In this document: positions 3,053-13,395 of the stretch, piece after piece | How the letters are laid out: every line of letters starts with the position of its first letter | Numbering within the stretch: position 1 is the first letter of the stretch | Origin: Acutalibacteraceae bacterium | GTDB taxonomy: Bacteria > Bacillota > Clostridia > Oscillospirales > Acutalibacteraceae | Length of the DNA stretch: 64,000 bases | Direction of reading: 5' to 3' | NCBI GenBank assembly: GCA_045594795.1 | Contig: JAZNZF010000001.1 | Coordinates: 3,917 to 67,916, forward strand | The notes under the pieces: model-generated | Seen by the model: the letters and a program-made list of their open reading frames with translations, nothing else | Told to the model about the DNA's origin: nothing | Database searches by the model: none | Program-made: the position numbers and the translations under genes

Positions 3053-6000
3053 AGTTCAATGCACTTTTTAAGATAGAAAGAATAAATAATTTTTGATGAT
3101 ACAGGTTTATTAAATATCTTTTCTAATGCTTGAGCATATAGCGATAATTGCTTAGAATAACGCGCTATAAGCTTTGCTGCGTCATCAGTTTTATCGGTTT
3201 TGTAATCAACTATAACTATGTCGTTTTCGTTTTCAATAACGCAGTCTGCTACGCCTTGAACAACCGAAAACTCATTGTCAAAGCCGTTAATTTTACTATT
3301 AATTTCAGACACAGCAATCTTTGTTAAAAACCTATATTCTTTATGAATTCTTACAGCTTTTTGTATCATACCGTAAACATAGCTATCAAAAAAAGCTTTA
3401 ACACTTTGCTTATCAATAACTTCTGCTTCAGAAGTAGAAATATACTGCCACTCATACAACCTGGATATTTCAGATTCAATATCTATTGCTGCAGCATCAT
3501 AATCGCAAAACTGCATAAACTTGTGGGTTGCAGTACCCTTCTCTGCCGAAGTAAAACCACTCTCGCTCATAAAACCGGGCAGCGTTTTAAATGTAAGCGC
3601 ATTGGCTTTGGTGGCTCCTAAAATATCGGTAACGGATGTTTTAGCAGGTATTGAATCTAAACACTCATACGGATATTTATACAAGAATTTATCACCAAAA
3701 TCAATATTGACGTCTTTGATTTCATCATTAACCGTATCAATGCGCTCAGCCTTAGGATAATATATTTCTGCTGTAAATTTGGTATCGTAATTAATTTCCT
3801 TAATATCCCAACTGCCACGTCTTAGTTGCTTAGCATTTGAGTTACAAATTATTGCAGAAAATATCCATTCGGCATAGCTATTACCTCTATAAATAGAGTT
3901 TTTGTTAAACGGCAACAAACCAGACGAATTATAATATGATATTTCTGAAAGTTTTTCTAAATAGCTATCAACGTTTTTAGAAGACGAAACCAGCACAAGT
4001 TTTTCACAAGCACGCGTCAACGCAACATATAGCAACCTAAGTTCTTCCTTGTAAGTTCTTAAAATGGTTGCTTTTTTTATTGCGGTTTTGGATATTGGTG
4101 TGATTACCGAACCATATTCACTATCAAAGTAATCGAATGCAACGCCATAATTATCATCACAAACAATTTTTGATTGAGCATCAGTTAAATTGAATTTTGT
4201 TCCTAAATCACAAATAATGCAAATTGGAAACTGTAGGCCTTTTGAGTTATGTACACTCATTATCTTAACCGATTCTGTTGATGAAACGATATTAGCCGAT
4301 AACGCTTTGTTTTTGTCGGATTCAATATATCTTATAAACTCATCGATGCCGCTGTCAGAACTATTAAAAGCTGCGGCTTTTTCAACTAATAACCTTAAAT
4401 TTGCCTTACGCATTTCACCGTTTTGCAAGCAGGAGTATATTTCCATAAATCCTAACTCAGAAAACAGTTTATTTAATAACTTATCAAGCGGCACAATCGC
4501 GCTAAGTTTACTTGCTCTATTTAAAAAATAATATGCGTACTCCGCCTTTTCATTACCGTTTTTTGCGGCATTCTTGAGGTTAATATATAACGGCACGTTT
4601 TTGTCATTTACACGTACACTCGCAAGCTCGTTTTCATTAAACCTGAATATTGGCGACTTTAATAGCGCCGCAATCGATAAATTATCGTTAAAGTTGTTTA
4701 TCGATTTTAGCATAGATAGAGCGTCAATAATTTCAGTAGATTCGCTGAATTTTTGTGCTGGGGTACTTACAGGAATTCCGCGTTGCTTAAAAACAGAAAC
4801 ATAGTCCTTGATTTTATTTTTTGGAGAACGCATTATTACGCAAAAATCATTAAAGCCCGCTTTCCTAAGTCCGCCGTTTTCATCTTTTAAAAATGCTTCT
4901 TTTTTCAATGTACGCTCAATATAATCAGCAATAAAGTTTGCCTCAGCAACGGCATTGTTTTCGCACTCAGCCGAAACAACAATATAGCTTTCTACTGCAT
5001 TTTCATTGTTGTCTGGATAATCACCAAGAGGTATTAGTTCTTCCTCGGCAGAGTAATCCATATCGGCATCAGCTTTTGTCATATACCCTTTAAAAATATA
5101 ATTTACAAATTTGCATATATCCGCCCTGCTTCTAAAATTACCGCTTAACAAAACCTTGCTGTTATCACTATCAGGCAGATAGTCGGGATATAACTCTTTC
5201 CTTTTAAGAAAGTTATCAGGATTAGCATTTCTAAAGCCGTAAATACTTTGTTTTACATCTCCAACCATAAATAGTTGACCGTTTTTACGGCTTAAAATAT
5301 TGAAAATTTCATCTTGCAAATTATTTGTATCCTGATATTCATCAACTAAAATGGCATCAAAATTTAAAGCAAAATCGTCGTAAACAATTTCACTATGCTC
5401 TGTAAATAGCTTTAATGCTAAATGCTCAATTTGGTCGAATGTATAAACGTTATTTTTATGCGAATATTCCTTAATTGCATTAAGATATTCTTTAGTTATT
5501 TCTACCGCTAATTTAACGCACTTGCCAGCTTTATTAAGCGACTTAATGGCAGTTTCTTCACCGTACTGAAAAGCATCACAAAGAGTTTTAATTAAATCCT
5601 TTTGTGCATCCTTAGAGGCAGAAATTAAATTTGAAACTATTTGGTTTTTGGTTGCGTTTTTTCTAATGCTGTCAGAAACGTGATTATTAGCTAATTCATA
5701 TACAAGCTGCCAATTTCTATATTTCAAAGCCTCTAATACATTTTTAGCAAAATTAATTCTTTCCATCAATGCGCTTGAGTATTTTTCAAAGAAAGAATTC
5801 TCTGCTGATGCTTCATCATATAGCTTTTTAGAAAGATAATAAGCGTCTTGTGCATCTTTAATGGCAGAATCACAAATACACGCAACCCATTTTGATTTTT
5901 TTAAATCCTCAGCTGAGTCTTTGTACAGGTTTGCAATTTCATCAAGCCAGTTTTCTTGATAAGGCATAGAACAACTTTTGTTATAAAGACTCATAACAAC

Positions 6001-12094: not shown

Positions 12095-12242
12095 TTATTC
12101 ATAATTCTTCTGCGAAAGAATCTTCCTTATGCATTTAAATTTAAAATCCAGCCGAGAATAATCGACAGGGTTTTGCTATGAAAGGATTGTACGAATTCGA
12201 TCTTGTTTGAATTTTCTACCTATGGGTTTGGACCCTCATAAA

Positions 12243-12740
12243 TCAATCGATAATTATCCTATCTATTTCTTCTTTCTTTTTTATATAAACAACTTTTTCT
12301 TTATGAGGTTCTAAAATTCTAATGATTTCTTTCATATTAGTGTTTTGAAAAGTATTAGTCCATTTCAAAAGGTCGCAAACAGATTTTAATGTCTCTTTTT
12401 TACCTTTTTCAAGCCCTACTCTTCTTTTGATATATCTCTTAATTATGCGAAATCTATATAACCATTTTGGAATGTCCAACACATAAATTACATCAGCATC
12501 TTCAAAACTTTTCTGTACCCAAGCATAATAAACACCATCTATTATCCAATCAGATTGTTGTAATATATCCTTCAACATTTGATTACGCTTTTCTATGGGC
12601 GTTTTGACTCCGTATGAATTTCGGCTATTATCCCATTGAATATCATCTAAATCAAAATTCGGTATATTGTATTTTTCAGATAGTCTTTTTGCTAAATATG
12701 TTTTACCCGAACCACTGCAACCGATTATTCGGATTTTCAT
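12243..12740 (-). CDS. P-loop NTPase, adenylate-kinase-like 'DNA topology modulation protein' (FlaR) family
   Basis: MKIRIIGCSGSGKTYLAKRL Walker A, WIIDG, and a C-terminal block (DIPKWLYRFRIIKRYIKRR) typical of FlaR-like kinases. AAGGAGA RBS before the ATG at 12740; the ORF-track extension to 12800 is unlikely. Confidence 0.75.
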   Translation of the reverse strand: MKIRIIGCSGSGKTYLAKRLSEKYNIPNFDLDDIQWDNSRNSYGVKTPIEKRNQMLKDILQQSDWIIDGVYYAWVQKSFEDADVIYVLDIPKWLYRFRIIKRYIKRRVGLEKGKKETLKSVCDLLKWTNTFQNTNMKEIIRILEPHKEKVVYIKKKEEIDRIIID

Positions 12741-13083
12741 TTGATATTCTCCTTTGCGGTGTTGATAGAGGCGATTAATATTCTGCGTATTGTACCACAT
12801 TGATTATATAAATCTTTTGCAATTTCTCGTTCTATCAAATCAGATTTTACAAACAGTTCAATCCAATATTCTGTTTCATAATATTCTTTGAGAGATATTT
12901 GAAGCTTTGCAAAAAAATCAGGTTTACCGTGAGCATAATTTGCTTCGTGAATATTAGCACCAATGCTTGTTGCGGAACGCTCTAATTGATTAACAAGAGA
13001 ATAATGTCCCTTTATATTTTACAAAGTTTTATGACTTTTACGGAAAAGTCCATTGATAAGTCGATAAGTTTATTTTCTTTCAA
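12737..13083 (-). pseudogene. Four-helix-bundle protein (23S rRNA intervening-sequence protein family), disrupted by a 1-nt frameshift
   Basis: TTG start at 13083 after GAGGTG gives MKENKLIDLSMDFSVKVIKLCKI, then a stop at 13012-13014. A second frame from 13018 reads NIKGHYSLVNQLERSATSIGANIHEA...YWIEL... down to a TGA overlapping the kinase ATG. Total length is 347 nt, one short of 116 codons. The break lies in an A4 run (13017-13020). Confidence 0.7.
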
Positions 13084-13102
13084 TAATATCACCTCTGCAA
13101 AC

Positions 13103-13111
13103 ATTATAACA
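13103..13111 (-). promoter_or_regulatory. Extended -10 promoter (TGtTATAAT) for the four-helix/kinase operon
   Basis: Minus strand reads acaTGtTATAATg, 7 nt upstream of the GAGGTG RBS. No good -35 element. Confidence 0.35.
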
Positions 13112-13117
13112 TGTTCA

Positions 13118-13287
13118 ATGAAATATTGCTACGCAATATGAAATAATCCTTCGGATTATGAAATTTGATGCTTACGCATCAAGTGAAATAAAATAAATCC
13201 CTCATACGCCGCAGCGTATTTCATAGCGACAGCTATTTCATATGCCGATAGGCATATTTCACAAATCCCACAAGGGATTTATTTCAT
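13118..13287. repeat. Heptamer/mini-hairpin ladder: four RTGAAAT then four ATTTCAY, separated by seven distinct perfect palindromes
   Basis: Heptamers start at 13118, 13138, 13158, 13183 (direct) and 13218, 13235, 13256, 13281 (inverted). The intervening stems are ATATTGC/GCAATAT, ATAATCC/GGATTAT, TTGATGC/GCATCAA, ATACGC/GCGTAT, ATAGC/GCTAT, ATATGCC/GGCATAT and AAATCCC/GGGATTT. Confidence 0.8.
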
Positions 13288-13289
13288 TG

Positions 13290-13320
13290 AAAAAAGCACC
13301 GACAATGTCGATGCTTTTTT
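13290..13320 (-). terminator. Bidirectional rho-independent terminator downstream of tRNA-Gly
   Basis: A6, then stem GCACCGAC/GTCGATGC (one mismatch, 3-nt loop), then T6, directly abutting the tRNA 3' end. Confidence 0.7.
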
Positions 13321-13321
13321 C

Positions 13322-13395
<74 letters not shown>

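Follow-up and report, generated by a model that had tools for sequence, protein, structure and literature searches.

The DNA analyzed here, a stretch of 64,000 nucleotides from contig JAZNZF010000001.1 of an Acutalibacteraceae bacterium (assembly GCA_045594795.1), hereafter the window, contains on its minus strand a ClpC-like gene, a tRNA-Gly(UCC) gene, a terminator hairpin (hp0), an array of heptamers and hairpins (13289-13118), an extended -10 promoter element, a PF05635 gene encoding a four-helix-bundle protein, and a P-loop kinase gene, in that order. The array is the element under study. Its heptamer, RTGAAAT, is located at 13118, 13138, 13158, and 13183 on the plus strand and at 13218, 13235, 13256, and 13281 on the minus strand. 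An original prediction, made from the letters of the sequence, had described eight heptamers and seven mini-hairpins in a non-coding region between the tRNA-Gly terminator and the extended -10 of the four-helix/kinase genes. All of these were found in the window, as was a central AAATCCC (13195-13201) repeating an arm of the last hairpin. On both strands of the whole window, 60 matches to RTGAAAT were counted compared to 36 expected; since only ~0.1 heptamers are expected in 170 nt, the cluster of eight inside 170 nt is far beyond chance. Better folding than shuffled controls had also been anticipated and was observed, with z = -7.7 for the plus strand and -6.3 for the minus strand relative to dinucleotide shuffles, none of 200 shuffles being as good. 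A coding repeat was rejected, as the spacing of the heptamers (variable, 17-25 bp) shifts the frame and the open reading frames (ORFs) are short. An array of intrinsic terminators does not describe the element either, since a U-tract is found only on hp0 and the module hairpins run into a heptamer. A consensus terminator scan did not list hp0, and its single terminator-like call was the hairpin labeled P1 below, on the plus strand.

A scan against Rfam identified the array as Gut-1 RNA (RF01706). One match (13213-13289, minus strand) scored 57.9 bits, with the curated gathering score of the family at 50 bits, and a second (13081-13169, plus strand) scored 49.4 bits, just under the cut-off. The four RUGAAAU linkers and three hairpins with AU...RU-extended stems that distinguish Gut-1 are present, based upon the Rfam consensus alignment and the sequence, and the window element is a member of the Gut-1 family. 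The ladder, previously thought to match no known family, is thus a known kind of element and not a new class. With matches accepted up to an E-value of 10, the Rfam scan returned only Gut-1 and tRNA, and CRISPR, T-box, riboswitch, and retron were ruled out by the lack of any such match. The Rfam model of Gut-1 (77 nt, three hairpins, one strand) shares with the window element the RUGAAAU linkers between short hairpins, the extension of stems by AU/GU pairs, and a source in gut-associated uncultured bacteria. The unit found here spans ~200 nt, with a terminator hairpin ahead of four forward and four inverted modules and with a long-range helix (P0) in addition. The mirror symmetry is missed by the Rfam model, and the element is consequently reported as two matches on opposite strands. 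Weinberg et al. 2010 (PMC2864571) devoted one sentence to Gut-1, as human-gut sequences absent from any sequenced organism; the mirror half, the adjacency to tRNA genes, the PF05635 neighbors, and the GAUAU heptamer class are all unmentioned there. A literature search yielded nothing on Gut-1 later than the 2010 paper. The flanks of the 2010 seed alignment contain, at some loci, a second inverted heptamer set with unrelated hairpins, and at some loci GUGAUAU/AUAUCAC replaces GUGAAAU/AUUUCAC. The mirror layout is a family trait of Gut-1.

The building block is an oriented module comprised of the heptamer RUGAWAU and a short mini-hairpin clamped by C-G. Each stem gains 2 bp from the AU of the preceding heptamer and the RU of the next, and as the Rfam consensus includes this extension (..AU(stem)RU..), the true linker is only GAA or GAU. 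In the canonical dyad the terminator hairpin is followed by CA, H1 (AYGAAAU), P1, H2, hp2, H3, hp3, H4, hp4, GUGAG, and X', and then by four AUUUCAC linkers with three hairpins. The window element matches this layout exactly when read on the minus strand (Table 1), i.e. the ladder is a full-length dyad copy of a Gut-1 element read in the direction of tRNA-Gly. X', the complement of A, H1, and the P1 5' arm taken together, is the 3' strand of P0, in which 13187-13201 pairs with 13274-13288. In the 3' domain (13118..13189) the minus-strand sequence is AUUUCAY in the linkers and GUAA, GAA, and GUA in the loops. The folding energy of hp0 is -20.5 kcal/mol for the minus strand and -16.1 kcal/mol for the plus strand, the plus-strand fold containing an internal mismatch. 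A- and T-tracts flank the hairpin on both sides. Such a hairpin was found upstream of every related array.

Table 1. Features of the Gut-1 locus in the window, in minus-strand order.
Feature	Position	Strand	Remarks
tRNA-Gly(UCC)	13322..13395	-	ARAGORN; Rfam tRNA, 72 bits; kept in all syntenic relatives; upstream anchor of the element
hp0, A6 / GC-rich hairpin / T6 terminator	13290..13320	-	directly after the CCA end of the tRNA; first hairpin of the unit
Accessory block	12097..13289	-	element, probable four-helix-bundle pseudogene, P-loop kinase, and ~150 nt more; absent from syntenic relatives
H1, first forward heptamer, AUGAAAU	13281..13287	-	P0 5' strand together with the P1 5' arm
P1 hairpin, AAAUCCC-UUGU-GGGAUUU	13263..13280	-	alternative partner of the 5' arm is the centre (P0)
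5' domain after P1	13206..13262	-	Rfam Gut-1 match; covariation
H2	13256-13262	-	5' domain
hp2	13242-13255	-	5' domain
H3	13235-13241	-	5' domain
hp3	13225-13234	-	5' domain
H4	13218-13224	-	5' domain
hp4, ACGC-UGCG-GCGU	13206-13217	-	5' domain; cUNCGg loop
Centre	13187..13205	-	linker AUGA (13202-13205), remainder X'; minus-strand reading AUGAGGGAUUUAUUUUAUU
H5'	13183-13189	-	3' domain, inverted modules
hp5	13165-13182	-	3' domain
H6'	13158-13164	-	3' domain
hp6	13145-13157	-	3' domain
H7'	13138-13144	-	3' domain
hp7	13125-13137	-	3' domain
H8'	13118-13124	-	3' domain
Putative extended -10 of downstream cassette, TGTTATAAT	13103..13111	-	6 nt beyond the last heptamer; read in the sequence
Four-helix-bundle gene (23S rRNA intervening sequence (IVS) protein, PF05635)	12803..13083	-	Pfam E = 9e-18, 3' part
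P-loop kinase gene	12243-12800	-	second gene of the cassette

Conservation of pairing was examined in a structure-padded alignment (A1) of 23 dyads, fitted to the hairpins. In this alignment 96.3% of local-hairpin cells were paired, double-sided changes occurred in 39 of 74 pairs, and the covariation score was 0.42, compared to 0.10 for shuffled and at most 0.08 for slid controls. P1 was paired in 100% of its 23 copies, with double changes at 6 pairs. The structural constraint on the hairpins that had been proposed is in agreement with these values. The argument given for it, that stems of unrelated sequence keep their pairing, holds between copies and does not hold within one copy: neighboring stems of the window element are different hairpin types recurrent in other genomes, and covariation is visible only between homologous hairpins of different copies. 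P0 joins the first heptamer and the 5' arm of the first hairpin to the centre and corresponds to the alternative pairing with the central AAATCCC that had been suggested, which proved to be real. It is 22 nt long in the window and 13-19 nt in most of ~37 mirrored copies. Across the 23 dyads P0 was 92.1% paired with compensatory changes at 8 pairs (e.g. AAAUCC/GGAUUU, CCACCC/GGGUGG, UCGUUCC/GGAACGA, and G-C to U-A inside H1:H1'), and its covariation score was 0.31 versus 0.12 for shuffled and at most 0.13 for slid controls. P0 is the best-supported long-range helix of the family. Kissing between loops of the two halves was rejected, the loops being complementary in no consistent order. The data support local hairpins and P0 and do not support a strict nested ladder as the structure of the family; the ladder is discussed below.

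Related elements were found at ~240 loci in total (designated by L numbers), mostly in metagenome-assembled genomes (MAGs) of gut and rumen Clostridia plus a phage. A pattern scan of one genome per species yielded at least 120 loci, and those listed were nearly all from gut/rumen Clostridia MAGs (Oscillospiraceae, Acutalibacteraceae, Ruminococcaceae, Christensenella, and others). For the GTGATAT class, 120 further loci came from a scan of metagenomes. Among the matches listed, arrays were often present on several contigs per MAG and often at contig ends. Multi-copy dispersal appears to be a property of Gut-1 elements elsewhere, which answers in part the earlier question of whether the element is single-copy or dispersed; within the window there is one copy. 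In dyads, forward modules always precede inverted ones, usually as 4+4 heptamers, and among the matches listed from the genome-collection scan 28 strict and ~30 looser forward-then-inverted pairs were counted, compared to ~2 divergent pairs. The inverted half is absent from ~45% of arrays, and the one-sided form is hp0 - (GUGAAAU-hairpin) x4 - GUKRRGGNAG - hairpin. A close homologue of the window element (L233) was found behind a tRNA-Thr gene. A scan of viral sequences yielded four genuine cases (L011, L028, L050, and L098), while its remaining matches, which were to three bare heptamers, were mostly tandem repeats. The phage of L098, which is also that of L267, contains one-sided, sense-oriented GUGAUAU arrays at 3790-3895 and 4290-4380 in intergenic gaps of its structural operon (portal, array, 98-aa ORF, array, 137-aa ORF), with the second array reaching the ribosome-binding site.

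Other arrangements were observed at individual loci. A whole 1.2-kb metagenome contig (L326) is a BIME-like (bacterial interspersed mosaic element) mosaic of inverted, forward, and inverted GTGATAT runs, and arrays larger than 4+4 thus exist. Two paralogous arrays of MAG RGIG6228 (L123 and L124) differ by inversions of whole flanking hairpins, e.g. GAAAAC-GCTCCGC-GTTTTC versus GAAAAC-GCGGAGC-GTTTTC and a GTA loop versus a TAC loop, a flip-flop pattern typical of DNA palindromes. An apparently genuine dyad (L121) was present in a MAG labeled Bacteroidaceae, for which binning error or transfer is possible. Seven loci from Proteobacteria, Acidobacteriota, Akkermansia, Porphyromonas, and Lysinibacillus (L122, L146, L166, L204, L215, L219, and L232) contain no arrays and look like chance pattern matches.

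The heptamers change in concert. In the GTGATAT class, the inverted half carries ATATCAC in 15 of 16 dyads, and L305 has the hairpins and architecture of L168 with every heptamer changed, including H1 and H1'. Mixed arrays exist, and one dyad (L292) is class-mismatched, with GTGATAT in one half and ATTTCAC in the other. Since the class is common to separate elements on one contig and to one-sided arrays, a lineage-specific reader or homogenization explains the concerted change better than intramolecular pairing alone. We take GTGAAAT/ATTTCAC to be one base from the half-sites of ParB parS (GTGAAAC) and Noc NBS (GGGAAAT); the heptamer half-sites are never juxtaposed as a palindrome in these elements.

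A tRNA gene in the same direction was located 33-46 nt upstream of mirrored elements in 22 of 58 cases and of one-sided arrays in 4 of 49, never in the opposite orientation, and these tRNA genes span 11 different specificities. One-sided arrays are co-oriented with flanking genes at a ratio of ~2:1 in an ORF-based analysis, which is crude and noisy in GC-rich MAGs. At the window locus, the ClpC-tRNA-Gly arrangement is kept in all syntenic relatives (ClpC identity of 90%, 84%, 78%, 77%, 77%, and 70%). The accessory block that contains the element is missing in L245, L246, L367, L368, L369, and the 90%-identity relatives, in the last of which ClpC-to-DegT spacing is 272 nt compared to 1423 nt in the window. 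Conservation at syntenic loci, on which the original prediction had relied, was not observed: seven syntenic lineages contain no trace of the element, neither heptamers nor hairpins. The element is thus accessory or mobile and does not represent a conserved housekeeping RNA at this locus, which still permits a function at the level of the family. The DNA after tRNA-Gly differs in every related lineage (window 12097-13289 versus L241-L246 and L367-L369), where DegT directly, a gene of 590 aa, an H+-pyrophosphatase, an AraC regulator, or another tRNA is found. This tRNA flank is hypervariable, and the element within it is accessory DNA. In one relative (L246), parts of the tRNA-Gly 3' end recur ~90-250 nt downstream in both inverted and direct orientation, which suggests that the region after tRNA-Gly is an integration hotspot. 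The hp0 of the window resembles the tRNA-Gly terminator of a relative (L367), which places the element immediately 3' of a terminator that is probably native to tRNA-Gly and weakens the idea that the terminator travels with the element. An attachment site of a tRNA-targeting integrase was rejected, as no second tRNA-Gly 3' end (up to 3 mismatches) was present in the window, and no target-site duplication was detected there.

Downstream of the element, the extended -10 was not listed by the consensus promoter scan, which requires a -35. Outward-pointing promoters of a similar kind follow the element in L136, L192, and L218. A PF05635 gene begins 20-75 nt after the element in the window and at 11 other loci (tblastn), ~12% of loci, and PF05635 was the only enriched neighbor family within 1.5 kb of ~190 arrays; downstream genes are otherwise diverse. 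The window copy is frameshifted near 13012-13016 (..VIKLCKI* then KGHYSLVNQLERS..), which looks like a 1-nt deletion in AAAATATAAAGG, and the frameshift probably marks a pseudogene or an error of the assembly. At locus L176 the PF05635 gene is joined by a one-sided array at exactly the point of this frameshift (..|RGHYSLVNQLERS). The four-helix-bundle genes beside dyads precede a different, apparently translationally coupled second gene at each locus (window, L164, L167, and L206), and the PF05635 locus resembles a cassette of two genes in which the second one varies. Searches for proteins identical to the kinase and to ClpC/P0001 returned no match. At the far border of the accessory block (~12105-12140, minus strand), AUAAGGAAG is followed by the hairpin AUUCUU-UCGCAG-AAGAAU, which resembles the GUKRRGGNAG plus hairpin tail that ends one-sided Gut-1 arrays. 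A right border of this kind for four-helix-bundle cassettes was rejected, since it was found in the window (AAGGAAG plus hairpin) and not at other four-helix-bundle loci.

The strand on which the element acts was inferred from the dyads after these were oriented by P0 and tRNA, the canonical strand being the tRNA-sense strand. For 21 of the 23 copies this strand gives the better fold of the whole element, the mean difference being 6.25 kcal/mol. On the canonical strand G.U outnumbers A.C by 4 to 1 in first-half stems and by 12 to 1 in second-half stems, where tandem G.A outnumbers C.U by 28 to 2. This bias emerged only once whole dyads were so oriented; counted in the own-forward orientation of each array, G.U (15) and A.C (14) were unbiased. 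The hp4 loop is cUGCGg in 11 of 23 copies, and second-half loops on the canonical strand are GNA or GNNA. UNCG and GNRA loops and G.U and G.A pairs are strand-specific features of the tRNA-sense strand, and on balance the dyad most likely has one functional strand, tRNA-sense, and probably does not represent two convergent RNAs. A recurrent second-half hairpin, AUCGAsC...GsGAGAU, has tandem G.A/A.G mismatches on this strand; it is conserved in sequence, usually lies beside the centre (L125, L129, L142, L154, L192, L193, L218, and others), and could be a protein or tertiary-contact site.

We tentatively interpret Gut-1 elements as modular REP/BIME-like elements (REP, repetitive extragenic palindrome) that act as tRNA-sense RNA and are read by a lineage-specific factor, a reading in which we place slightly less than even confidence. 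RNA is the most likely form in which the element acts. Accessory or mobile DNA would land immediately 3' of a hairpin or terminator and would probably be transcribed by read-through from the strong tRNA promoter, as no promoter of its own was found. The resulting RNA would be a chain of very stable hairpins with AU-rich linkers as the recognized parts. All heptamers switch together between GAAAU and GAUAU from one lineage to another, which points to a lineage-specific trans-acting factor that may recognize them. The inverted half and X' could mask or close the forward array intramolecularly, through switching between P1 and P0 and partial pairing of rungs. The net role might be that of a REP/BIME-like protector of transcript ends, or of an insulator between the tRNA gene and the inserted cassette.

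Several observations weigh against this interpretation. The trans-acting factor and the insulator or stabilizer role are conjecture. In the energy model P1 outcompetes P0, with probabilities of 0.71 and 0.03, respectively. The consensus scan of the window found no promoter for the element on either strand, the window holds only a single Gut-1 copy, and no transposase, integrase, Y1-type, or other mobilizing-enzyme family was enriched within 1.5 kb of the ~190 arrays. When only the second half is folded, the opposite strand is favored in 18 of 23 copies. The G.A/G.U asymmetry arises in few hairpin types and thus in few independent events, and the 7 metagenome dyads of a replicate were too few to inform on it. 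Furthermore, the stems are nearly perfect Watson-Crick palindromes with G.U at less than 2% of pairs, a property that typifies palindromes in DNA more than it does RNA genes.

The last point also favors the main rival reading, in which the modules are recognized as folded single-stranded DNA, e.g. on the lagging-strand template, and an HUH-type or other recombinase inserts the unit 3' of hairpins and terminators, any RNA being incidental (REPIN- or attC-like). Such an element would be consistent with presence/absence polymorphism at a hypervariable insertion spot, multi-copy dispersal with arrays at contig ends, arrays that always begin right after a hairpin, flip-flop inversions of whole hairpins between paralogues of one MAG, the alternating orientation of the L326 mosaic, and an inverted-pair layout like that of REPINs (REP doublets forming hairpins). 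In addition, the loops of one strand read C-GNA-G or C-GNNA-G, which are extra-stable mini-hairpin loops in DNA. We nevertheless regard this reading as somewhat unlikely, given that no recombinase gene is enriched near the arrays, the window contains neither a target-site duplication nor a repeat of the tRNA 3' end, stems differ among modules unlike those of REPs, and two features are of RNA type, namely the conserved cUGCGg loop of hp4 and the U.G pairs that close each forward module. In a further, unlikely reading, Gut-1 dyads might be the structured cis-acting module of unrecognized small mobile cassettes of gut Clostridia and phages, landing directly 3' of terminator hairpins, with a preference for those that follow tRNA genes, and often with a PF05635 four-helix-bundle gene and a variable second gene as cargo. 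A lineage-specific factor would read the RUGAWAU heptamer, and the inverted half with P0 would act as a switch or provide a folded-back substrate on which insertion or processing takes place. Concerted switching of the heptamers by lineage, a last heptamer abutting outward promoters, and the resemblance of the heptamer to the parS and NBS half-sites would also be compatible with a double-stranded operator array, in which two opposed sets of TGAAAT half-sites bind a protein that controls the adjacent promoter or organizes the chromosome. This is extremely improbable, as it leaves unexplained the covarying palindromic spacers, the coupling of loop and heptamer orientation, and the strand-specific G.U and G.A pairs, and is difficult to reconcile with variable heptamer spacing, diverse downstream genes, and arrays inside phage operons.

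The two remaining alternatives concern the relationship between the halves. In the ladder model of the original prediction, one transcript folds into four nested rungs (H1:H8', H2:H7', H3:H6', and H4:H5'), and the resulting serial four-way junctions would be its functional ground state. The heptamers of the two halves are indeed complementary and usually 4+4, their class is matched between halves in all but one of the GATAT dyads, rungs 2-4 are ~99% complementary across the 23 copies, and the window copy is among the better ladder formers, with rung probabilities of 0.62, 0.70, 0.64, and 0.00 and an outer helix that extends to 11 bp. As a family structure the ladder is quite improbable. Rungs overall are 93.7% complementary and nearly invariant, so that covariation provides no test of them, and within a lineage the class switch extends to every array, even where there is no inverted half. 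In 15 of the 23 copies the outer rung contains two mismatched positions, and in the window and in L233 the R/Y position is unmatched in nested order. Mean predicted rung probabilities are 0.20, 0.28, 0.24, and 0.04, and folds forced into the ladder are ~9 kcal/mol worse than the minimum free energy structure, as are those forced into P0. P0, which covaries, uses the first 3 nt of the innermost inverted heptamer and topologically excludes the ladder. The halves of L292 are of different class, and ~45% of arrays lack the inverted half altogether. Two convergent Gut-1 small RNAs, one per strand, each oriented by GUGAAAU and meeting at the centre, would account for the Rfam matches on opposite strands, for the better folding of the isolated halves when each is read forward (23 of 23 copies for the first half and 18 of 23 for the second), for loops that begin with U in the forward orientation of both halves, and for the A- and T-tracts on both sides of hp0. 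The second-half G.U and G.A counts fit the tRNA-sense strand instead, the complete element attains its higher stability on the canonical strand, the halves are asymmetric with P0/X' and the tandem G.A hairpins on one side only, and no promoter was found for the plus-strand half, where an outward-pointing promoter is present. Convergent RNAs are accordingly very improbable, and a single tRNA-sense RNA remains the tentatively preferred reading.

Compared to known systems, Gut-1 elements share with proteobacterial REP/BIME/REPIN sequences dispersed intergenic palindromic units often located just after genes or terminators, inverted pairs, mosaic clusters, presence/absence polymorphism, and, probably, passive transcription. 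They differ in that the conserved part is the 7-nt linker and loop type while stems vary between modules, in their Clostridia hosts, and in a 4+4 layout with P0 that is fixed and not freely mosaic. Within 1.5 kb of the ~190 arrays, no gene resembling a REP-associated tyrosine transposase was seen. The palindromic units of the window element are not near-identical, as REP units within a genome are. Integron attC sites likewise have imperfect palindromes conserved in structure and variable in sequence, inverted 7-nt cores, strand-specific features, and flanking small cassettes; their cores (RYYYAAC / GTTRRRY) do not correspond to those of Gut-1 (RTGAWAT / ATWTCAY), Gut-1 modules are repeated, and no integrase or cassette array was found. 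The 23S rRNA IVS with a PF05635 ORF also places a four-helix-bundle gene beside a stable-RNA gene together with an inverted-repeat structure, whereas the Gut-1 element lies outside the RNA gene, after its terminator, and is accompanied by the gene at only ~12% of loci. Small RNAs of the CsrB/RsmZ sponge type also repeat a short motif many times on a chain of hairpins, whereas the Gut-1 motif is in linkers, not loops, and the element is mobile or accessory.

Since its entry into Rfam in 2010, Gut-1 has remained an orphan family, known as three hairpins from human-gut metagenomes. The present analysis adds a larger, often dyad-symmetric unit with a covarying long-range helix, an apparently multi-copy, accessory status in gut and rumen Clostridia and a phage, a preference for the 3' flank of tRNA terminators, repeated coupling to PF05635 genes, and concerted change of the heptamers. 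For genome annotation, this explains recurrent contig breaks and paired Rfam matches on opposite strands. A bare motif thereby becomes a testable system with respect to the heptamer reader, RNA versus single-stranded DNA form, and mobility. Should the mobile-cassette reading be true, the elements would furthermore provide a first handle on the spread of orphan 23S rRNA IVS / four-helix-bundle genes beside stable-RNA genes.

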